A DNA stretch of 64,000 nt from the NCBI GenBank assembly GCA_963664115.2, contig CAXWPJ010000006.1:160001-224000 (forward strand). The letters run 5' to 3'. Numbering within the stretch: position 1 is the first letter of the stretch; each line of letters starts with the position of its first letter. The notes under the pieces were generated by a model that ran no database searches, was not told the DNA's origin, and saw only the letters and a list, made by a program, of their open reading frames with translations. This document shows, one piece after another, positions 17,499-32,006 of this stretch. A program made the translations under genes and the position numbers. The stretch comes from Terriglobia bacterium. Its GTDB lineage: Bacteria > Acidobacteriota > Terriglobia > 20CM-2-55-15.

Positions 17499-18966
17499 TA
17501 CTACTGTGTTACAAACGAAGCGGCCCACAGAGCGGACAGCACGGGAGTTGCTGGATGAGGAATCGTGCGATGCGAATGCGAAGTGAGGCGATCGAGCACG
17601 GATTATGTCGCTCGGGCCGGATCCGGGGCTCCGCGGGGTTTGAAGTGTCTGGGGAGTTGGGGGACGGATAGTCCAACATGCGTGACAAATGCAGAGGGGG
17701 AAAAACGGTTCCGCTCAGCGACCAGGAACCCATAAGCTGCGATGCATAAAGCGCCATGGTGGTGAAATCCACGCCAGCCGCGACCTTCGTAATGGCCCAG
17801 TCCGAGTTCCTGCTTGAGTTCCTGATAGTCGCGTTCGATGATCCAGCGATGCTTGGCCCGATAGACCAGATTTGAAAGAGAGGTATTGGTCCCGAGACTG
17901 GAGAGCCAGTATTGAACCGGTTCGGATTCGGTCTTGGGCCATTCGATCAACAACCATTCTTCCGGATGGGGCTCGTGGCGCTCATGATCGCGATGAGCCG
18001 TGCGAATCCGGATTGCGGCGAAGCGGGAGCGCAACGTGTCGGCCGTGCCTTCGCGCCAGGACACGTTCTTCCATTTTTGTCGAGGCAAGGAGAGAGCCAG
18101 TTGTTTGACCGAAACAGGACGATGCTTCTTGTGACGCCTCAACAGCGTCGGCGGGCGCCCCTGGCCGGTCCACGACTTCTTGGGCAGGGGTTGCCGACCG
18201 GGCTCCCAGACCGAGGTCGAGGATTGGATGCCAACCACATAAGGCAGCCCCAGTGCGGTAATCGTCGCGCGAAACTTACTGTCGTTGCCGTAGGCGGCAT
18301 CGGCCAACACGGGAGCCGTCCCCACACCGTCCGCAATCGCCTGTCGGATTTGGTCCAGAGCAATCGCAATCTTGGTCTGGAATCCAACCGCGTCGGGGAC
18401 ACCGGTCTTCTTGCGGCGTTCGGCATCGTTCGCCCAAAGCTTCGGCAGGTACAGCCGCCATGCCACGGGCAGACTCGATTTCGCCGTCGCTACCGACAGA
18501 CTGACCGCCACCCGGCAGTTCTCCTGCTTGCCGACCTGTCCACAGTATTGCCGGGCCACACCTACCGAGTGGGTCCCCTTCTTCACGAATCCGGTGTCGT
18601 CGACAATCCACGATTCAATCGGACCGTGCGCTTCCATCCCCGGCAACGTCGACTCCCGGACTTGTCGCAATATGGCCGCATCCTCCCAGGGGGCATCCGC
18701 CACCAGGTGATGCAGCGACTGATGCATTTGGCGCACATTATCCGGAGCCAATCGCGCCGCCATCGGTTCCACGCTCTTGCGCTTGATTGGCAGCAGCAAT
18801 CCCTTGCAGTACCACTTCAGCGGTTCATGACGGTCGGCGTGTCCGGCGGCCGACGCCAGGCGTTCCATATAGGCCGCAAAACGTTCTTCCTGAGTGCCTG
18901 GCGCCTTCGTTTTGGCGCTCATGTGCAAATGCTAACACAAGCTCGTCATTTTGTAACACAGTAGTA
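17499..18966 (-). mobile_element. IS701-family insertion sequence, copy 1
   Basis: Perfect 17-bp IR tactactgtgttacaaa / tttgtaacacagtagta; CTAG on both flanks (17495-17498, 18967-18970). Confidence 0.93.
17603..18922 (-). CDS. IS701-family DDE transposase
   Basis: IVDDTGFVKKGTHSVGVARQYCG, LADAAYG and RWIIERDYQELKQELGLGHYEGRGWRGFHHH. Confidence 0.93.
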   Translation of the reverse strand: MSAKTKAPGTQEERFAAYMERLASAAGHADRHEPLKWYCKGLLLPIKRKSVEPMAARLAPDNVRQMHQSLHHLVADAPWEDAAILRQVRESTLPGMEAHGPIESWIVDDTGFVKKGTHSVGVARQYCGQVGKQENCRVAVSLSVATAKSSLPVAWRLYLPKLWANDAERRKKTGVPDAVGFQTKIAIALDQIRQAIADGVGTAPVLADAAYGNDSKFRATITALGLPYVVGIQSSTSVWEPGRQPLPKKSWTGQGRPPTLLRRHKKHRPVSVKQLALSLPRQKWKNVSWREGTADTLRSRFAAIRIRTAHRDHERHEPHPEEWLLIEWPKTESEPVQYWLSSLGTNTSLSNLVYRAKHRWIIERDYQELKQELGLGHYEGRGWRGFHHHGALCIAAYGFLVAERNRFSPSAFVTHVGLSVPQLPRHFKPRGAPDPARAT

Positions 18967-22204: not shown

Positions 22205-22238
22205 CTGTTTCCGGTCTCCCACACAATCTGTGACCTAG

Positions 22239-23706
22239 TACTACTGTGTTACAAACGAAGCGGCCCACAGAGCGGACAGCACGGGAGTTGCTGGATGAGG
22301 AATCGTGCGATGCGAATGCGAAGTGAGGCGATCGAGCACGGATTATGTCGCTCGGGCCGGATCCGGGGCTCCGCGGGGTTTGAAGTGTCTGGGGAGTTGG
22401 GGGACGGATAGTCCAACATGCGTGACAAATGCAGAGGGGGAAAAACGGTTCCGCTCAGCGACCAGGAACCCATAAGCTGCGATGCATAAAGCGCCATGGT
22501 GGTGAAATCCACGCCAGCCGCGACCTTCGTAATGGCCCAGTCCGAGTTCCTGCTTGAGTTCCTGATAGTCGCGTTCGATGATCCAGCGATGCTTGGCCCG
22601 ATAGACCAGATTTGAAAGAGAGGTATTGGTCCCGAGACTGGAGAGCCAGTATTGAACCGGTTCGGATTCGGTCTTGGGCCATTCGATCAACAACCATTCT
22701 TCCGGATGGGGCTCGTGGCGCTCATGATCGCGATGAGCCGTGCGAATCCGGATTGCGGCGAAGCGGGAGCGCAACGTGTCGGCCGTGCCTTCGCGCCAGG
22801 ACACGTTCTTCCATTTTTGTCGAGGCAAGGAGAGAGCCAGTTGTTTGACCGAAACAGGACGATGCTTCTTGTGACGCCTCAACAGCGTCGGCGGGCGCCC
22901 CTGGCCGGTCCACGACTTCTTGGGCAGGGGTTGCCGACCGGGCTCCCAGACCGAGGTCGAGGATTGGATGCCAACCACATAAGGCAGCCCCAGTGCGGTA
23001 ATCGTCGCGCGAAACTTACTGTCGTTGCCGTAGGCGGCATCGGCCAACACGGGAGCCGTCCCCACACCGTCCGCAATCGCCTGTCGGATTTGGTCCAGAG
23101 CAATCGCGATTTTGGTCTGGAATCCAACCGCGTCGGGGACACCGGTCTTCTTGCGGCGTTCGGCATCGTTCGCCCAAAGCTTCGGCAGGTACAGCCGCCA
23201 TGCCACGGGCAGACTCGATTTCGCCGTCGCTACCGACAGACTGACCGCCACCCGGCAGTTCTCCTGCTTGCCGACCTGTCCACAGTATTGCCGGGCCACA
23301 CCTACCGAGTGGGTCCCCTTCTTCACGAATCCGGTGTCGTCGACAATCCACGATTCAATCGGACCGTGCGCTTCCATCCCCGGCAACGTCGACTCCCGGA
23401 CTTGTCGCAATATGGCCGCATCCTCCCAGGGGGCATCCGCCACCAGGTGATGCAACGACTGATGCATTCGGCGCACATTATCCGGAGCCAATCGCGCCGC
23501 CATCGGCTCCACGCTCTTGCGCTTGATTGGCAGCAGCAATCCCTTGCAGTACCACTTCAGCGGTTCATGACGGTCGGCGTGTCCGGCGGCCGACGCCAGG
23601 CGTTCCATATAGGCCGCAAAACGTTCTTCCTGAGTGCCTGGCGCCTTCGTTTTGGCGCTCATGTGCCAATGCTAACACAAGCTCGTCATTTTGTAACACA
23701 GTAGTA
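22239..23706 (-). mobile_element. IS701-family insertion sequence, copy 2 (direct repeat of copy 1, offset 4740 bp)
   Basis: Same IRs as copy 1; CTAG flanks at 22235-22238 and 23707-23710; differs from copy 1 at only about six positions seen by eye. Confidence 0.93.
22343..23662 (-). CDS. IS701-family DDE transposase
   Basis: Same protein as 17603-18922 except NVRQM to NVRRM. Confidence 0.93.
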   Translation of the reverse strand: MSAKTKAPGTQEERFAAYMERLASAAGHADRHEPLKWYCKGLLLPIKRKSVEPMAARLAPDNVRRMHQSLHHLVADAPWEDAAILRQVRESTLPGMEAHGPIESWIVDDTGFVKKGTHSVGVARQYCGQVGKQENCRVAVSLSVATAKSSLPVAWRLYLPKLWANDAERRKKTGVPDAVGFQTKIAIALDQIRQAIADGVGTAPVLADAAYGNDSKFRATITALGLPYVVGIQSSTSVWEPGRQPLPKKSWTGQGRPPTLLRRHKKHRPVSVKQLALSLPRQKWKNVSWREGTADTLRSRFAAIRIRTAHRDHERHEPHPEEWLLIEWPKTESEPVQYWLSSLGTNTSLSNLVYRAKHRWIIERDYQELKQELGLGHYEGRGWRGFHHHGALCIAAYGFLVAERNRFSPSAFVTHVGLSVPQLPRHFKPRGAPDPARAT

Positions 23707-23709
23707 CTA

Positions 23710-24014
23710 GCAGCCCGTGGCTAAAGTCGGCCGAGCGATCATCGTGCTCGGTTAGATAATTTTCTTACACTGACGCCTCGGCTCCGCCTCTTTACTATGA
23801 AAGCTGTCCACCCGCACCGGGGGGCCGGTGCGGGTCCTCCAGTGCCTGCTTCAAAATGTCGTTCAGCCCTTTAGGCCTCGCAGTCAGGACGATTGCGAGG
23901 GTCGGCGGTCGTTCAGACAGGATGTCTGAATGAACGATCGAGCGAAATCTTCTCCCAGCAGCGAACCGTTCGCATCACCTAGCACAGCCGGATTCGACTT
24001 TGACCTCCGACTCC
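23710..24014 (-). mobile_element. MITE-like element (~300 bp) carrying copy A of the structured repeat
   Basis: Left end ctagcagcccgtggctaaagtcg resembles the 17.2-kb MITE end. The right end read inward, ctaggagtcggaggtcaaagtcg, matches it at 17 of 23 positions. The right CTAG contains the argR stop codon. Confidence 0.6.
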
Positions 24015-24457
24015 TAGGACCGCAGATCTTCAGTTCGCTTCAGGGTTTCTTTGAGATCACCGGCTGAGCGGCAGAGGACGAAGATGGTGTCGTCCCCCGC
24101 AATCGTGCCGACGATTTCCCTCCAGCCTGCGTTGTCCACAGCGTCGGCAACGGTGGAGGCGCTGCCGGTCGTGGTCCTGATCACGAGCAGCGGCGCTACG
24201 CTGTCGATTGCGACCACATAATCTCTTAAGACGCGACGCAGGGTTTGCTTTGAAGTGCGGCGGGCCTCGGGCCGCCCCACGACATAAGCGCTGCCCGCCT
24301 TGACCAGCCCGAGTTCCTTAATATCCCGTGACAAAGTGGCCTGGGAGACCTCGATGCCGTTTCGGTGCAGCGCGTTGGCCAGAACGTGTTGGCTTCCGAT
24401 GCGATTTTCCCGAACCAGTTCTAAAATAGAGTTTTGGCGGTCTCGTTTGCTCCTCAT
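24014..24457 (-). CDS. argR: Arginine repressor
   Basis: VSQATLSRDIKELGLVK and IVGTIAGDDTIFV. Confidence 0.95.
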   Translation of the reverse strand: MRSKRDRQNSILELVRENRIGSQHVLANALHRNGIEVSQATLSRDIKELGLVKAGSAYVVGRPEARRTSKQTLRRVLRDYVVAIDSVAPLLVIRTTTGSASTVADAVDNAGWREIVGTIAGDDTIFVLCRSAGDLKETLKRTEDLRS

Positions 24458-24485
24458 CGTTGCGACAAATTATATAGCAAAAGGC

Positions 24486-24544
24486 TTGACTTCATAGAAG
24501 TCCAAAGTGCATAATTATTCATTCGTATAGGATGAATATTCATT
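24486..24544 (+). promoter_or_regulatory. Sigma70-type promoter overlapped by tandem ARG boxes
   Basis: TTGACT (24486-24491), 18 bp, CATAAT (24510-24515). The 18-mers AGTGCATAATTATTCATT (24506-24523) and ATAGGATGAATATTCATT (24527-24544) are 3 bp apart and resemble WNTGAATWWWWATTCANW; they lie between divergent argR and argB. Confidence 0.8.
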
Positions 24545-24564
24545 TTGGTGTGTGAAGCAGGACT

Positions 24565-25485
24565 ATGAAGAGATCTCCGACAACTGCAGCGTGGCCCGTT
24601 CTGGATAAATATCGCGATACGTGTTTCGTAGTGAAGCTCGGCGGCCAGCCGCTGACCGACCCGGAGGCACTCAACAGTCTCGCCTTCGATCTATCCATTC
24701 TCCGTCAGGCTGGGGTCCGTGTCGTCGTCGTTCATGGCGGCGGTCCGCAGTTGTCGGAGATGTCTGAGCGGCTTGGCCTGGAAACTAAGAAAATCGACGG
24801 TCGCCGGATTACGGATAACAACACCCTGAAGCTGGCGAAAATGGTTTTTGCCGGCGAGATCTCGACGGATATCGTAGCCGCTCTCCGCCGCCACGGAGTG
24901 TCCGGTATCGGGTTGAGTGGTGTTGATGGTGAGTTGGTCGACGCCGAGCGTCGGGCTCCGGTTTGGCGGACTAATCCGGAAACAGGCGAGGAAGAATTGA
25001 TCGACTTCGATCATGTGGGTGATATCCGTCAGGTGAACCCGTTCGTATTGAACGTATTGCTCGACCAGGGTTTTGTCCCTGTCGTTGCTTCTCTTGGATC
25101 GGATAAAGCCGGTTCCGTCCTCAACATCAATGCCGATACCGTTGCCGCTGAAATTGCGATAGCCATCGGGGCAGAGAAACTGGTTGTGATGTCTGATGTT
25201 CCCGGATTGTTACGCGACGTCGGCGATCGCAATAGCCGGATTCCAGATATTACAGTCGATGCTGTCCGAGAACTCAAACAGACCGGCAGCGTTTCGGGTG
25301 GGATGCTCCCGAAGCTTGAGAGCATCATCCGCACTATCGAATCCGGTACGGAGCAGATCCACATCCTGGATGGGCATACGCCGCACGCCCTTCTGGAGGA
25401 ACTCAGCGGACCCGGTACCCACGGTACTTTCATTTCCTCAGCCAGGCACGCCGGGGGTGTCTCGATCGGGCACGAGCCGGCCTGA
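24565..25485 (+). CDS. argB: Acetyl(acyl)glutamate kinase
   Basis: VVKLGG, VVVHGGGPQ, GRRITD, NINADTVA and GGMLPKL. Confidence 0.93.
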   Translation: MKRSPTTAAWPVLDKYRDTCFVVKLGGQPLTDPEALNSLAFDLSILRQAGVRVVVVHGGGPQLSEMSERLGLETKKIDGRRITDNNTLKLAKMVFAGEISTDIVAALRRHGVSGIGLSGVDGELVDAERRAPVWRTNPETGEEELIDFDHVGDIRQVNPFVLNVLLDQGFVPVVASLGSDKAGSVLNINADTVAAEIAIAIGAEKLVVMSDVPGLLRDVGDRNSRIPDITVDAVRELKQTGSVSGGMLPKLESIIRTIESGTEQIHILDGHTPHALLEELSGPGTHGTFISSARHAGGVSIGHEPA

Positions 25486-26912
25486 TGCGCGCCGCTCGGT
25501 TTGCGGCGCCTATGAATCCTCACTTTCGCGCCCTCAACGCCAGTATTGGTTTCGATAAACGTTTGCTCCACGAGGACATCGACGGGAGCCGTGCGTGGGT
25601 TCGTGCGCTCTCCGGTTCCGGGCTTCTCTCCGATGAGGAGGCACAAAAAATCGATGAAGGCCTGGAAGGAGTGCGGAAGGGGATTGAGTCAGGCGAACTT
25701 CCCTTGTCGGAAGAACTCGAAGACATTCACATGAATGTGGAGGCCTTGCTTGCCGATGCGGTGGGTCCTGTGGCTGGCAAACTTCACACGGGCCGCAGTC
25801 GCAACGAGCAGGTAGCGACGGATTTGAGGCTCTACCTGCGTGATCGCTCTCGGCGGATCGCAGCCGATCTGTTGTCCCTCGTTACCACGCTCGCTGAGAC
25901 GGCCGAGCGGAACTACGACGTAGTCATACCGGCCTATACACATTTGCAGCGGGCGCAGCCGGTCCTGTTCGCTCACCATTTCCTTGCGTACGCGGAAATG
26001 TTTCTCAGAGATCACGAGCGGCTGCTCTGGGCAGCGAATCAAGCCGATGCCTGTGTGCTTGGAGCGGGTGCCTGCGTCGGCAATCAGTTTGGCATCGACC
26101 GGGAATACTTACGTGAAAACCTCGGTTTTTCACGTCTCACGCATAACTCTCTCGACGCTGTAAGCGACCGGGATTTTGTATGTGACTTTCTGCACGCGGC
26201 GGTCATGTTTCTGGTCCATGTGTCCCGCTTGAGCGAGGACATCATCCTCTGGTCGTCCAGCGAATTCGGGTTCGTCGAACTGGATGAATCCGTGTCTTCG
26301 GGCAGTTCGATGCTTCCGCAAAAGAAGAATCCGGATGCGTGTGAGCTGGGGCGCGCGAAGTGCGGGCGTGTGCTTGGACATCTGGTGGCTTCGGTTTCGA
26401 TGTTGAAAGGTCTGCCGTTGTCCTACAACAAGGATCTCCAGGAGGACAAGGAAGGTACGTTCGACGCGGTGGATACCATAGCGGCGCTGATACCGGTCTT
26501 CGAGGTCGTCGTGGGCAAGTTAAGCGTCAATCGCGAACGGGCGGGGTCCGCCCTTCGAGGAGGATATCTGGAGGCCATTTCGGTTGCCGACTACTTCACA
26601 CGCAAGGGAATGCCTTTTCGTGAAGCGCACTCGGTTGCGGGCAAACTTGTCCGCCTGGCCGAAGAGCGTGTCGTGTCGTTATCGGAGCTGTCGATCGAGG
26701 ACTATCGGGAGCTTGCCGGTGACATGGCCGACAGCGTAGACGAAGACCTGTTCGAAGCCATCACGCTGGAGGCTGCTTTGGAGAGCAAGGACGTCGTCGG
26801 TGGTACCGCGCCCAGACGTGTGGCCGAGGAAATTGATCGCGTTAAGAAGCTTGTCGAACAGCTTCGGAAACATCAGATCCCGGGTAATCGCGAGGTGACT
26901 CTTGGCGGATAA
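25485..26912 (+). CDS. argH: Argininosuccinate lyase
   Basis: EDIHMNVE, LHTGRSRNEQ, YTHLQRAQP, GSSMLPQKKNPD and YNKDLQEDKE. Confidence 0.95.
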   Translation: MRAARFAAPMNPHFRALNASIGFDKRLLHEDIDGSRAWVRALSGSGLLSDEEAQKIDEGLEGVRKGIESGELPLSEELEDIHMNVEALLADAVGPVAGKLHTGRSRNEQVATDLRLYLRDRSRRIAADLLSLVTTLAETAERNYDVVIPAYTHLQRAQPVLFAHHFLAYAEMFLRDHERLLWAANQADACVLGAGACVGNQFGIDREYLRENLGFSRLTHNSLDAVSDRDFVCDFLHAAVMFLVHVSRLSEDIILWSSSEFGFVELDESVSSGSSMLPQKKNPDACELGRAKCGRVLGHLVASVSMLKGLPLSYNKDLQEDKEGTFDAVDTIAALIPVFEVVVGKLSVNRERAGSALRGGYLEAISVADYFTRKGMPFREAHSVAGKLVRLAEERVVSLSELSIEDYRELAGDMADSVDEDLFEAITLEAALESKDVVGGTAPRRVAEEIDRVKKLVEQLRKHQIPGNREVTLGG

Positions 26913-28110
26913 GAAGAAAGTCGTCCTGGCGTATTCAGGAGGGTTGGATACTTCGTATTGTGTCCTGCATCTCCAGGAACAGGGATTCGAGGTGATTACG
27001 CTCACCGTCGATACCGGTGGTTTTTCCGCGTCCGAGCTCAGTGAAATGGAGGCGCGAGCCAAGCAGCTCGGGGCGGCGGAACATCACACTGTCGATGCGC
27101 GGGCACAGGTGTTCGACGAGTACGTCAGCTACCAGATCAAAGGAAATATTCTGCGGGGACAGGTATACCCCCTGGCGGTTGCGGCCGAGCGTGTCGTGCA
27201 GGCGTCGGTGGTAGCCGACTATGCCATCCGCGTGGGCGCCGCCGCCGTTGCCCACGGGTCCACAGGCGCTGGTAACGATCAGGTTCGTTTCGACGTCGTC
27301 TTCCAGGTGCTTTGTCCGGCACTGGAAATCATTTCGCCGGTCCGTGACGAAACGCTGACCCGGGAGGAAGAGTATTCGAAACTGGCCGAACGAGGAGTCA
27401 AGATTCCTGATTCGACACGGAAGTATTCGATCAACACAGGCCTTTGGGGTGGGACGATCGGGGGCGGGGAAACACACGACTCTTGGGCAGAGATTCCGGA
27501 CCATGTATACGATCTGGTTCTCGACAGTGAGCAGGAGATTGAATCCGAGCACCTTACGATTGAATTTGAAAAAGGTATTCCAACAAAAATCGACGACACC
27601 GCATATGCCGGTCCGGAACTGATTTCTGTGCTTGGGAACAAGTGCCGCGGCCATCGTGTGGGTCTGGATGTTCATATCGGTGACACGGTCCTGGGGATCA
27701 AGGGACGTATCGCATTTGAGGCCGGCGCCGCTATCGTGCTGATTAAAGCGCACAGGGAACTGGAGAAGATCACAACCACGTCGTGGCAGCGTTTCTGGAA
27801 AGACCAGATGGCAGAGTTCTACGGAAAGCTGTTGCACGAGGGCCTGGCCTTTGAGCCGGCCCTGCGGGATATCGAAGCGCTGATCGACAGCTCCCAGGAG
27901 CGTGTGTCCGGTGAGGCGCGCGTCCGGCTGGACCGCGGCCATTTCACTGTAACCGGTGTCCGCAGCCCGCACAGCATGATGGACTCCGGCAGCGGGGTGT
28001 ACGGTGAAATGCCGAAGCTCTGGGACGGTTCCGACACGCGTGGGTACGGCAAAATTGTTGCGGTGCCGGCTCGACTTCATCGAAGCGCCGCCGGTAAAGG
28101 ATCCGAGTAG
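26902..28110 (+). CDS. argG: Argininosuccinate synthase
   Basis: VLAYSGGLDTS, AHGSTGAGNDQVRF and GDTVLGIKGRIAFEA. Confidence 0.95.
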   Translation: MADKKKVVLAYSGGLDTSYCVLHLQEQGFEVITLTVDTGGFSASELSEMEARAKQLGAAEHHTVDARAQVFDEYVSYQIKGNILRGQVYPLAVAAERVVQASVVADYAIRVGAAAVAHGSTGAGNDQVRFDVVFQVLCPALEIISPVRDETLTREEEYSKLAERGVKIPDSTRKYSINTGLWGGTIGGGETHDSWAEIPDHVYDLVLDSEQEIESEHLTIEFEKGIPTKIDDTAYAGPELISVLGNKCRGHRVGLDVHIGDTVLGIKGRIAFEAGAAIVLIKAHRELEKITTTSWQRFWKDQMAEFYGKLLHEGLAFEPALRDIEALIDSSQERVSGEARVRLDRGHFTVTGVRSPHSMMDSGSGVYGEMPKLWDGSDTRGYGKIVAVPARLHRSAAGKGSE

Positions 28111-28139
28111 TTTTTTGTAATTCGATACAGTAGAGAAAG

Positions 28140-29195
28140 ATGGCCGAGACTATTCAGTTAGATAAAATCGCATCAGTGGTGAGTCGCGTCGGCTTGCCCC
28201 GAACTGTATCGATTACTTCCAAGCTCGAGTCGACTTCCGGAAACGCGATCGTAGTTCGCGTTTTGCCCGACGGTAGGGCCAGACAAGAACTCGAACTGTC
28301 GGACGGCCGAATGATCCGAATGTTCGGCGATGATGTTATCGTCGGCGCCCTTGGACGCCGCCGGGCGCTGAGGGGACACGTGGGCGACGTCCCGTCGAGC
28401 GTGAGAGTTGGAGACCGGTTGGCCATATTGAACCGCGGGGGCGTGGTGGGTACTTCGGCCTCCTCCGATCCGGAGCCGGAAGGCCCGCTGGCATGCGAAG
28501 TTCTGGGAATGCCCATCATCGACGGACGGATTCCCAACATTCGCGACAATGCCATCAAGAACGTATCAAGTCTTGTCGGGATGGCTATCCCTCCGATCGT
28601 GATCGTATCCGGCACCTCGATGGCGAGCGGGAAAACGAGTTTGCTGACGGAACTGGTTCAGGTTTTGTCTAAAAAAGGCATTCGTGTGGCCGCGGGCAAG
28701 CTGACCGGAGTTGCATGTTTGAGAGATCTGCTGTCAATGGAAGATAACGGCGCTGTCGAGACCGCTTCGTTCCTGGATGCGGGTTACCCATCGACGGCGG
28801 GTCTGGAAGCGGCGGTCCTGATCGATACCGCGAAGGCCGTGATCGCCGAGCTGGCGGCGGGCAACCCCGAGGTCATGCTTCTGGAATTGGGCGATGGTAT
28901 CGTGGGCGATTACGGTGTGATCGATGTCCTGGTTGATCCTGAGATTCGTGATGTCGTTCATGTGCACGCATTTTGTGCGAATGACCTGGCCGGTGCGTGG
29001 GGAGGTCTTCGATTTGCCCAGGAGCATGGACTCGATATCGATCTGTTTGCGGGGCCTGCGACAGACAACCTTGTGGGTGTCGAATACCTGGAGTCGGAGT
29101 TCAACCGTCCCGCGATCAACGCTTGTAAACATCCCGCCCGAATGGCGGAAGTCGTTTTGACTCTCCTGAAGCTGAAGAAGCGCAAGGTTTCCTGA
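28140..29195 (+). CDS. DUF1611/DgcN-like P-loop protein of unknown function inside the arg cluster
   Basis: GTSMASGKT, AAGKLTGVACLRD, FLDAGYPST and LELGDGI, preceded by an N-terminal beta domain (IVGALGRRRA). Confidence 0.7.
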   Translation: MAETIQLDKIASVVSRVGLPRTVSITSKLESTSGNAIVVRVLPDGRARQELELSDGRMIRMFGDDVIVGALGRRRALRGHVGDVPSSVRVGDRLAILNRGGVVGTSASSDPEPEGPLACEVLGMPIIDGRIPNIRDNAIKNVSSLVGMAIPPIVIVSGTSMASGKTSLLTELVQVLSKKGIRVAAGKLTGVACLRDLLSMEDNGAVETASFLDAGYPSTAGLEAAVLIDTAKAVIAELAAGNPEVMLLELGDGIVGDYGVIDVLVDPEIRDVVHVHAFCANDLAGAWGGLRFAQEHGLDIDLFAGPATDNLVGVEYLESEFNRPAINACKHPARMAEVVLTLLKLKKRKVS

Positions 29196-29236
29196 TTTGT
29201 CGGTTCTGGTGTCTTCGGTCTAACGTCCACGAGCTG

Positions 29237-29342
29237 AGATTTCGCTCGGTCGTTGATGCGGTTCTTTAAACAAACCCGCAGCGTTCCTCGCTGCGGGTGG
29301 ACAACGAGGCGGTCGCCGAGGCGTCAGAGTAAATAGGATGAT
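29237..29342 (+). repeat. Structured repeat, copy B (internally deleted)
   Basis: agatttcgctcggtcgtt is joined directly to gatgcggttc...aaacccgcagcgttcctcgctgcgggtggacaacgaggcggtcgccgaggcgtcagagtaa; nearly identical to blocks of copy C. Confidence 0.85.
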
Positions 29343-29425
29343 CGGATGGGAAGAGAACAGCGTTGTGAAGCACCGATCTTCTCACCGACGGCTCTAACGA
29401 CCCGTCAACCGTTCCAAGAAACAAC

Positions 29426-30472
29426 ATGGCTAAGGCTAGGGACAATATCGGTGTCGGCGTTCTCGGTGCCTCAGGATACATAGGTGCGGAGTTGATGCGC
29501 TATGTTGCGCTGCATCCTCGTCTGTCGCTTCGATGGGCAACGGCCAACCGGGACGCGGGTCGGCCCGTTGGCGACGTGTTTCCGAACCTCCAGGGCTTCG
29601 TGAATCAAAGTTTTCTTAAGGCGGAAGAGGTCGAGACCCGGTTTGGCGAAGTCGCAGCCGTATTCCTGGCTCTCCCGCACCATGAATCCCAGGAAGTCTT
29701 ACCTTCACTGGTAGATGCTTATCCGGAAACGGTTTTCATCGATCTTGCAGGAGATTTCCGGACTCCCGATGCTGAAGGTTATCGCCGCTATTACGGACGT
29801 GATCATCAGGCTCCTGAATTGTTGGAGCGTTTTGTCTATGGCTTTACCGAGGTTCAGCGCAAAGCGCTGGCGGGTGCGCGCCTGATCGCCAATCCGGGTT
29901 GTTTCGCAACTGGAATGCTTCTGCTCTTGTATCCCCTGGCCCAAAGCGGTCTCTTGTCGGAACCCGTGTGTCTGACCGGTATCACGGGATCTTCCGGTTC
30001 CGGGCGTCAAGCTATCACGACGACCCATCACCCGGAACGTGCGCAGAACGTCCGGGCTTACAGGTCGCTGGTGCACCAGCATCTACTGGAAGTCGAGTGG
30101 TTTCTCAACAGAGGTTCCGGACCGGACATCCGACTCCAGTTCGTGTCACAGTCGGCCCCGATCGTGCGTGGAATATTCACAACACTGTTTCTGCCAGCTC
30201 AGGAAGCCGCTGCGGTACGCGAGGTGTATGAGGGGTTTTACGGCGCCGAGGCCCTCATCGACGTCGTTGAGGGGTCGCCCGATCTAAGGTCCGTACAGAC
30301 GACGCCCCGGTCTGTCGTCGGAGTCGATGGCGCAGCCGGGAGAGGTGCAGTTGTCTTCTCGACGATCGACAACCTGGGCAAGGGTGCGGCCGGCCAGGCT
30401 ATACAGAATCTCAACTGCGCACTCGGGCTTGGCGAAACGGAGGGTTTGGATTGGCCAGGAGGTTTTGTTTGA
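29426..30472 (+). CDS. argC: N-acetyl(acyl)-gamma-glutamyl-phosphate reductase
   Basis: GASGYIGAEL, IDLAGDFR, IANPGCFAT and IDNLGKGAAGQAIQN. Confidence 0.95.
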   Translation: MAKARDNIGVGVLGASGYIGAELMRYVALHPRLSLRWATANRDAGRPVGDVFPNLQGFVNQSFLKAEEVETRFGEVAAVFLALPHHESQEVLPSLVDAYPETVFIDLAGDFRTPDAEGYRRYYGRDHQAPELLERFVYGFTEVQRKALAGARLIANPGCFATGMLLLLYPLAQSGLLSEPVCLTGITGSSGSGRQAITTTHHPERAQNVRAYRSLVHQHLLEVEWFLNRGSGPDIRLQFVSQSAPIVRGIFTTLFLPAQEAAAVREVYEGFYGAEALIDVVEGSPDLRSVQTTPRSVVGVDGAAGRGAVVFSTIDNLGKGAAGQAIQNLNCALGLGETEGLDWPGGFV

Positions 30473-31647
30473 AGAACGCGCAGTCCATCCCCCAATTGGA
30501 AGACGCCTATACCTTGCCGGTCTATAGCAACATACGCTTGCCCTTGACGATCGTGAAAGGCAAGGGCAACTGCGTCTACGATGACGATGGAAACGAATAT
30601 CTCGATTTGTATGGCGGACACGCGGTCTGCAGCATCGGTCACTCGCATCCAGACTGGGTTCACGACATGCAGCGACAGATTGAGACGCTGACGTTCTATT
30701 CCAACGCAGTGTACAACCCGGTGCGTGCTGAGGCTGCGGAGGTGCTGGTCACACACAGCTACCCGTCCATGCACTCGGTCTTTTTCTGTAATTCGGGTGC
30801 CGAGGCTAACGAGACGGCGATGAAGATTGCACGGAAGGCAACCGGCCGCGGGCTAGTCGTGTCAATGCAGCGTGGGTTCCACGGCAGAACGATCGGGGCA
30901 CTGAGCGCGACGGGCTTCCCGGCGATGCGTGAGCGTTTTCCGGAAAATATCGAAGCCTGGAGTCGGTTCTTCGAGTTTGGCTCGGCGGACATTTTCGATA
31001 TGGAAGATCCCGACGAGGTCTCAGCGATTATTGTAGAGCCCATTCAGAGTGTGGCCGGAGTGTACATGGCGGAGCCGGACTACTACCGGCGATTGAGAGA
31101 GTTCTCGAGCGACCATGGGATCTGCCTCATTTTCGATGAGGTGCAGACTGGATCGGGACGAACAGGCGCGTGGTATGCAGGCACGCACTGGGGCGTGGAG
31201 CCAGACATCGTCACCACAGCCAAAGGTGTTGCAGGTGGCATGCCGGCCGGCGTTGTCATCGCAAATGAGTTTGTGGCCGGGACCGTCGAGCCCGGTGATC
31301 AGGCGACTACGTTCGGAGGCAATCCACTGGCGGCGGCGGCGATATGTGCGACGTACCGGGTAATCGAGAAAGGCAAACTTGTCGATCGGGTCCGGGACCA
31401 TTCGTCCCAGGTCATTTCGCGACTGCTGGAGCTCGAGGCTGTCCGTGAGGTCCGGGGCTTGGGATATTTGCTCGGTGTCGAGTGTTCCGTGTCTGCGAAA
31501 GAGCTGTCGGGCCGTTTGCTCAAGGAGCGGATTCTGGTGGGCACGTGCGCCCAGGGGGAAACCATCCGCTTGCTGCCTCCGTTGACCATGAACATGGATG
31601 AATGGGAACACTTTCTGGAAGTATTTGGGAAGGTGGTTAAGGGTTGA
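30469..31647 (+). CDS. argD: Acetyl(acyl)ornithine aminotransferase (class III PLP enzyme)
   Basis: FFCNSGAEANE, FHGRT, IFDEVQTG and DIVTTAKG; probable TTG start overlapping the argC stop. Confidence 0.9.
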   Translation: MKNAQSIPQLEDAYTLPVYSNIRLPLTIVKGKGNCVYDDDGNEYLDLYGGHAVCSIGHSHPDWVHDMQRQIETLTFYSNAVYNPVRAEAAEVLVTHSYPSMHSVFFCNSGAEANETAMKIARKATGRGLVVSMQRGFHGRTIGALSATGFPAMRERFPENIEAWSRFFEFGSADIFDMEDPDEVSAIIVEPIQSVAGVYMAEPDYYRRLREFSSDHGICLIFDEVQTGSGRTGAWYAGTHWGVEPDIVTTAKGVAGGMPAGVVIANEFVAGTVEPGDQATTFGGNPLAAAAICATYRVIEKGKLVDRVRDHSSQVISRLLELEAVREVRGLGYLLGVECSVSAKELSGRLLKERILVGTCAQGETIRLLPPLTMNMDEWEHFLEVFGKVVKG

Positions 31648-31729
31648 GAGGGAGTTAGTAGTTGTGAGTACCGATTCTCAGCTCATGACCTTGCCCTCTA
31701 ACTGGTGCCCTTGGGTGAAACATCGCGAC

Positions 31730-31939
31730 AGAAGATTTCGCTCGGTCGTTCAACCGGCCGACCATCTCTGTCGCGATTCACGCGTGGGCCGAACGAGGGG
31801 CGACCCTCACCATCATCCTGATGGCGAGGCTTATTGGGGACAAAGAAACGTTGATGCAGTTCCCCAACAAAACCCGCAGCGTTCCTCGCTGCGAATGGAC
31901 AACGAGGCGGTAGCCGAGGCGTCAGAGTAATAGGATGAT
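31730..31939 (+). repeat. Structured repeat, copy C (full length)
   Basis: Shares ordered blocks agaagatttcgctcg, gaacga, cgaccctc...tcctga...gaggc, cccgca...tgcg, tggaca and gaggcgg...gccgaggcgtcag with 23765-23953 on the minus strand. Confidence 0.85.
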
Positions 31940-32006
31940 TTGTTCGGATCCGAACGAAACTTTGAATCAACGAACTTCTAATCCAACTATCTAGCAACTT
32001 CACGCC

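Follow-up and report, generated by a model that had tools for sequence, protein, structure and literature searches.

A 64,000-nucleotide stretch of a Terriglobia bacterium genome (contig CAXWPJ010000006.1, positions 160,001 to 224,000; hereafter the window) holds three copies, A, B and C, of a repeated structured element around its arg cluster. The element is almost certainly a non-coding miniature inverted-repeat transposable element (MITE) of the IS630 type, inserted at TA sites. Its interior carries hairpins with GGA in the loop, a cargo predicted, with about even probability, to bind the host's CsrA when the GGA strand is transcribed. The vehicle is of a known kind; the cargo is unusual. 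An earlier interpretation made without database searches (the sequence-only reading) had described a covarying element of ∼200 nt at these three positions, and the copies, the stems it named, the tcgttc/gaacga stem closing inserts of different length, the nearly invariant 3' block and the CGTT junction in copy B were all recovered. The element proved longer (about 275–290 bp for A and C) and, although that reading could not place it in a known family, falls within a known kind. MITE-type ends had been noticed in copy A; they are there, but in the other two copies as well.

Full elements are about 280–300 bp long and end in repeats that match the termini of an IS630-family transposon. Decayed inverted repeats flanked the core of the copies, and in G002, a sister species of the same genus, copies of 263–305 bp had both repeats (19 of the 19 shown). 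With one genome per species searched, the 20-base terminal repeat bounded ten complete elements of 1.14–1.17 kb, and those that were translated encoded a single IS630 transposase (NF033545 above cut-off). Among 91 pieces representing part of the G002 copies, 65 were syntenic and 26 unplaceable when compared with the host genome (G000), where 48 of the 65 sites were empty and 17 occupied (14 in the same orientation, three in the opposite one). Twenty empty sites were examined; the ends could be located in 17, of which ten showed a single TA versus two at the filled site, and the other seven were too diverged for a clean TA call. Terminal inverted repeats matching an autonomous IS630, duplication of TA, sites filled in one genome and empty in the other, short length, multiple copies and the lack of a transposase gene mark the element as an IS630-type MITE. 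According to the available portions of PMC2817692 and PMC2229807, IS630-derived MITEs such as RUP of Streptococcus pneumoniae and Correia/NEMIS of Neisseria are likewise short, non-coding and intergenic, have terminal repeats in common with an IS630 transposon, duplicate TA, show filled and empty sites and receive other insertion sequences (ISs) at their ends. The present element differs in being longer (280–300 bp), G+C-rich and modular, with covarying GGA-loop hairpins and an interior that bears no relation to the parent IS and has been kept better than the ends.

A search of five genomes of the genus (G000–G004) recovered no IS630 transposase bounded by these ends; the best IS630 proteins there were at most about 50% identical to that of the parent IS, so the copies in G000 are likely stranded. 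The abundant IS630 of G000 was rejected as a partner, its ends being different and only the CTAG target held in common. This resident IS630, which encodes 362 aa and has about 26 copies of identical score, had inserted at the CTAG end of four of the 43 near-full elements (Table 1). At two G000 loci (C2:787880 and C11:101798) the same CTAG site was filled in a sister species in the opposite orientation, either by in-place inversion or by repeat insertion. Carriage by plasmids or phages was also rejected, as plasmids and phages gave no match and viral contigs contained none. Matches to the covariance model were confined to family f1. The H2 hairpin pattern gave one match in each of three among 400 other genomes of the phylum, none forming a hairpin, and 24 metagenome stretches held further variants, with and without IS630 ends.

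The three copies are a small part of the family: G000 contained 74 nhmmer matches, 43 of them near-full copies at E<1e-40, and all four other genus members of the first sample carried it. Copy B had been read as C with an internal deletion; it appears to be a separate insertion, since several other copies match B at least as well as C does and B has its own full-length orthologue in G002. A role as an arginine-responsive cis-regulator or riboswitch, or as a guide-bearing mobile RNA, was suggested by the three copies in one cluster and by the filling of sites B and C in G002 too, and is highly improbable. The genes beside 40 further full copies, where 77 ORFs were scanned, were unrelated housekeeping genes. 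When 58 loci were scattered randomly over intergenic CTAG sites, 45% of 5000 trials produced a triplet within 8.3 kb, a degree of clustering expected by chance. The arg cluster had no copies at these sites in G004 and in the relative G022, and in G001 at most a remnant at site B; one contig of a related strain (run X13) bridged site B without the element, and close strains differed at the 5' end of B. Copy B lacks two of the three hairpins, and no nuclease or reverse transcriptase gene was tied to the family. The loops proposed to be variable and guide-like are the conserved part, variability lying in stems and recurring modules, and the inserts fall into a few recurring types. Rfam families, including riboswitches, ribozymes and HEARO-type RNAs, gave no match, and the copies were not associated with one gene class or with 5' leaders as an Rfam cis-regulator would be. 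Look-alikes among ribozymes, retrons and bridge RNAs were dropped after the ends matched IS630. The sequence-only reading had itself named many dispersed copies, without gene or strand bias, as the outcome that would speak against regulation, and on dispersal, unrelated neighbours, chance-level clustering and empty arg sites the arginine regulator is refuted; the arg copies are ordinary insertions.

The interior includes three hairpins (H1, H2 and H3) and a tail block. Across 66 copies from five genomes, with kinship among copies uncorrected, 95.1% of stem cells were paired and 125 two-sided changes were counted versus 41 in shuffles; none of 500 shuffles scored as high, and slid controls paired at 30–46%. 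Covariation thus lay far above the controls. The view that the element is mobile and structured, with selection acting on its RNA or single-stranded DNA (ssDNA) structure, is supported. End identity to the IS repeat was 0.59/0.62 in 41 G000 copies and 0.76/0.78 in 56 unshared G002 copies (0.44 for random sequence), core columns stayed at about 90–100%, and the linker between H2 and H3 was variable. At 12 sites filled in both genomes, the outer flanks picked the orthologue in eight and seven cases and the inner parts in only one to three; H1 was of the long type in one species and the short type in the other at seven of the 12. Inner modules thus appear to have been exchanged between copies by recombination. 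Two loops had been inverted in place between their arms, so palindrome processes at the DNA level also act on the element. Such processes can yield compensatory changes without selection.

On the strand opposite to the one described by the sequence-only reading, GGA occupied 110 of 121 H2 loops, 93 of 98 short H1 loops and 75 of 98 H3 loops, and in every such loop except two a single base separates it from the closing base. Long-type H1 tips retain GGA in nine of 20. We refer to this as the GGA strand and to its complement as the TCC strand. Loops were of the types CAGGATG, CAGGAAG and CAGGACG, with rare CAAGGATG and CACGGATG. Read on the GGA strand, H1 and H2 were 99.3% paired, and wobble cells in the inner parts of these hairpins favoured that strand by 26 to 3. 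Nearly all intergenic AGGAT-loop hairpins of G000 (55 of 60) lie in these elements. These loop variants match both the ANGGAN loop and the repeat of CsrB, CAGGA(U/A/C)G, in the available text of PMC7652899, and the accessible part of PMC13443453 describes a Bacillus subtilis CsrA whose activity was kept with a five-base loop trimmed 5' of GGA. Intergenic DNA of G000 also contained 38 GGACT-loop hairpins outside the MITE family, probably another repeat or an IS end.

The host is likely a member of the Acidobacteriota, to judge by a TIGR03436 match above cut-off and by its nearest Atlas clusters, and its genome encodes CsrA. In G000 one csrA adjoins fliW, and a second csrA lies elsewhere, without the C-terminal part of the domain (Table 1); short matches of this kind are present in most genomes of the family. 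CA(C/A)GGA motifs were present in four of six flagellin leaders, and the H1–H2 module was found in six of 141 genomes, all six with csrA. Within genus g3 the module and csrA occurred together only in G022, two congeners searched being without both. G022 itself is of high G+C, with no flagellin, a lone csrA and the H3-tail module as REP-like doublets. G000 has six flagellin genes besides flgL, and near-consensus predicted CsrA hairpins (CAAGGACG, CACGGATG) lie at C9:38526 (minus strand) upstream of flgM and at C9:633041 upstream of a flagellin gene. A scan of GGA density revealed no convincing CsrB-like dedicated gene among its top windows.

Convergent gaps were preferred, holding 31 of 60 copies versus 189 of 1197 long gaps; gene calls for G000 came from a dicodon script. 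The GGA strand was antisense in co-directional gaps in 37 of 41 cases in G002 (p 1e-7) and 14 of 23 in G000 (p 0.40), or 51 of 64 for the two combined, and in five of five in other congeners; these sets are partly dependent through shared sites, and the bias is carried mainly by G002. A first count in G000 alone gave 7 versus 9, without bias, and orientation in G000 was not linked to GC skew. The remark of the sequence-only reading that all three copies are sense to the local arg transcript therefore holds, but it reflects a family-wide strand rule, not one specific to arg genes. The strand bias fits a purging of CsrA sites from operon messages and equally a preference for the TCC strand. The latter would follow if the TCC strand were the working RNA, a Correia/ERIC-like 3'-end or intercistronic structure altering mRNA decay whose sense orientation is tolerated or favoured. 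We consider this unlikely: the placement counts agree with it, and ERIC and NEMIS effects depend on orientation (PMC2229807, in the portion available), but folding z-scores were no better on the TCC strand (−2.2, −1.4 vs −2.3, −2.1), H1 and H2 mismatches read as A–C there, and the fixed register of the loop is left without a reason.

A further, tentative possibility is that the cargo represents captured REP-like palindromes, kept by a RAYT/HUH-type ssDNA enzyme, which would recognise the TCC loop and copy modules from one site to another; GGA would then be a by-product, purged as a mimic of CsrA sites or ribosome-binding sites. The H3-tail module of G022 has no IS ends and occurs as inverted doublets and tandem arrays with nearly all the same loop motif, and GTAG starts some units (three of 18 in G022 under a strict pattern; in metagenome contigs, four of 11). 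Modules were swapped at shared sites, H3 wobbles lean to the TCC strand, and Group 3 TnpA-REP enzymes read loop bases (PMC8266576, in the part available). The same 20-base IS630 ends also bounded 41 other short elements from several phyla with unrelated interiors, many of them palindromic repeats of different kinds and some nested in further inverted repeats; an IS630 lineage with these ends seems to capture hairpin repeats often. Against such an enzyme, GTAG preceded H3 in none of 30 G000 and none of 37 G002 copies, no RAYT scored above cut-off in five genomes, Y1 genes were not module-flanked, except that decayed pieces lay some 500 bp away from a broken Y1 gene in G004, and the wobbles of H1 and H2 favour the GGA strand. 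The REP/BIME/REPIN systems with RAYT resemble the element in their palindromic modules and compensatory variants and, in G022, in inverted doublets and some GTAG tags; modules of the present genus differ in lacking GTAG, in lying inside DDE-transposon ends and in having no linked RAYT that could be found. A REP origin of the cargo is plausible.

Several observations weigh against CsrA binding as the reason for the GGA loops. With csrA in 17 of 19 family genomes, its co-occurrence with the module is nearly uninformative, and most csrA-positive relatives are without the element; fliW is anti-correlated with Csr sRNA circuitry, and the MITE stems exceed the length preferred by SELEX ligands (both from the available part of PMC7652899). 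H3 wobbles showed no preference for the GGA strand (10 vs 12, and 4 vs 14 in a second count), and by distinct pair types the asymmetry was 20 vs 14 overall (p 0.39). Copies B and C have their GGA strand antisense to the arg operon and so offer no GGA on the arg message. One fresh copy gave no sigma-70 promoter or terminator match, and given both results the conservation of GGA at B and C calls for conversion or some other cause; strand avoidance is not in itself a selective force for retaining GGA. In the G000 copies core conservation is inflated, as these copies were found via the core. Two of the 12 shared pairs were mis-parsed in H3 and one is maybe not the same site, and some shared pairs could be repeat insertions at one CTAG (two exact-site cases are inverted). 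Binding by CsrA gives no reason for the invariance of the tail and 5' blocks, and none of the readings accounts for the tail. Two RNA runs yielded sparse strandless contigs (0.09 and 0.05 of words) and no evidence of expression.

In the explanation favoured here, an IS630 transposase with matching ends would mobilise the MITE in trans, recombination between copies would refresh its interior, CsrA would likely bind the GGA loops of the transcribed GGA strand, and insertions placing GGA in sense upstream of ribosome-binding sites would be counter-selected. Such binding would explain why in most copies the GGA strand faces away from operon messages. The host might gain from this a distributed CsrA sponge, through 3' read-through in convergent gaps, or might simply tolerate a selfish cassette; that the sponge is useful we consider doubtful. 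Rather improbable, by the same measure, is a transposon-borne CsrA sponge in the full sense, with IS630 ends having spread a three-site predicted CsrA cassette to dozens of gene ends. If true, a FliW–CsrA host outside the Proteobacteria would keep the cassette by exchange between copies after the ends die, and a missing link between mobility and Csr regulation would be supplied for GGA-loop repeats such as TwoAYGGAY.

TwoAYGGAY (Rfam RF01731) is the closest counterpart of the cargo. It too is dispersed and multicopy, with adjacent GGA-loop hairpins, covariation and doublets, the last seen here in the relative G022; CsrA sites are proposed for it in PMC4333381, and bioRxiv 10.64898/2026.09.22.753630 describes it as multicopy and doublet-forming. 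The MITE loops are, in contrast, mostly five-base AGGAN, and mobility is explained here by IS630 ends, which the available parts of these two sources and of PMC2864571 do not report for TwoAYGGAY. The RF01731 model gave no window match at the gathering threshold and none at E≤5 in 16 loci; its search of five genomes gave no match either, nor did the control. AYGGAY was not present in both loops (one of 121 H2 loops is CACGGATG, and one G022 H1 homologue has AYGGAY), and a basal stem shared by H1 and H2 was absent from the RNAalifold prediction on 41 copies. The element would work like TwoAYGGAY but is not a member of that family. The sponge sRNAs CsrB, CsrC, RsmY and RsmZ also carry several hairpin loops with CAGGA(U/A/C)G in each molecule, but the MITE has three sites rather than 20, is dispersed mobile DNA with no promoter or terminator match in the one fresh copy, and resides in a host that uses FliW.

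As a plain MITE the element is ordinary, and its interest lies in two open points that can be tested in one defined element. How mobility and regulation are connected in TwoAYGGAY repeats is described as unresolved in the available part of bioRxiv 10.64898/2026.09.22.753630, and whether any species uses FliW and sponge RNAs jointly is, according to the section available of a review, not known (PMC7652899). In the present element the vehicle of a GGA-loop cassette can be named, its filled and empty sites are dated, its strand rule is strong, and the host has both FliW and CsrA. A literature search outside most subscription journals returned no paper joining MITEs or REPs with CsrA loops.

Table 1. 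Parts of the three MITE copies and related loci (window positions, unless a G000 contig is named).
Feature	Position	Strand	Remarks
Copy A, whole MITE (TA to TA)	23708..23981	−	TCC strand; GGA strand is window +; nhmmer E 6e-55
Copy A ends	CTAG at 23707 and 23979		decayed terminal repeat 23708–23729; repeat at other end unrecognisable at 10 mismatches
A tail block, conserved	23770..23790	−	
A hairpin H3	23811..23834	+	GGA gone from loop
A hairpin H2	23876..23900	+	loop CAGGACG, window +
A hairpin H1, short type	23908..23939	+	loop CAGGATG, window +
Copy B, internally deleted MITE	29207..29396	+	H1 and H2 lost; CGTT junction 29251–29254
Copy B decayed repeats	29207–29228 and 29375–29396		
B hairpin H3	29275..29297	−	loop GAGGAAC, window −
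B tail block, conserved	29306..29327	+	
Copy C, whole MITE	31703..31993	+	decayed repeats 31703–31724 and 31972–31993
C hairpin H1, long type	31744..31798	−	GGA missing from tip loop
C hairpin H2	31805..31829	−	loop CAGGATG, window −; one G–U pair on window −
C hairpin H3	31873..31893	−	loop GAGGAAC, window −
C tail block, conserved	31904..31925	+	
IS701-family transposase gene	22343..23662	−	NF033540 above cut-off; CTAG at 22235 and 23707
Resident IS630 insertions at element ends	G000 C2:407380, C9:830966, C7:77189, C9:547820		
Second csrA paralogue	G000 C9:507307-507534		matches Pfam model positions 1–43 only

The genes flanking the three copies are argR, argC, argD and that for N-acetylornithine carbamoyltransferase, with A after argR, B before argC and C before the carbamoyltransferase gene. 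A 351-aa ORF within the arg operon (28140–29195), kept in four relatives, had no Pfam or NCBIfam match, and its Atlas neighbours were DUF1611-like. The flank ORF of locus L062 (1810–2592) resembled the fold of a subclass B3 metallo-beta-lactamase, below all family cut-offs. The IS701 next to copy A was rejected as a partner of the MITE, as its ends differ; it is a separate IS abutting the CTAG at the end of A. The window contains two IS701 copies (17603–18928 and 22343–23662) with ORFs 99.6% identical, the second lying between the CTAG sites at 22235 and 23707.

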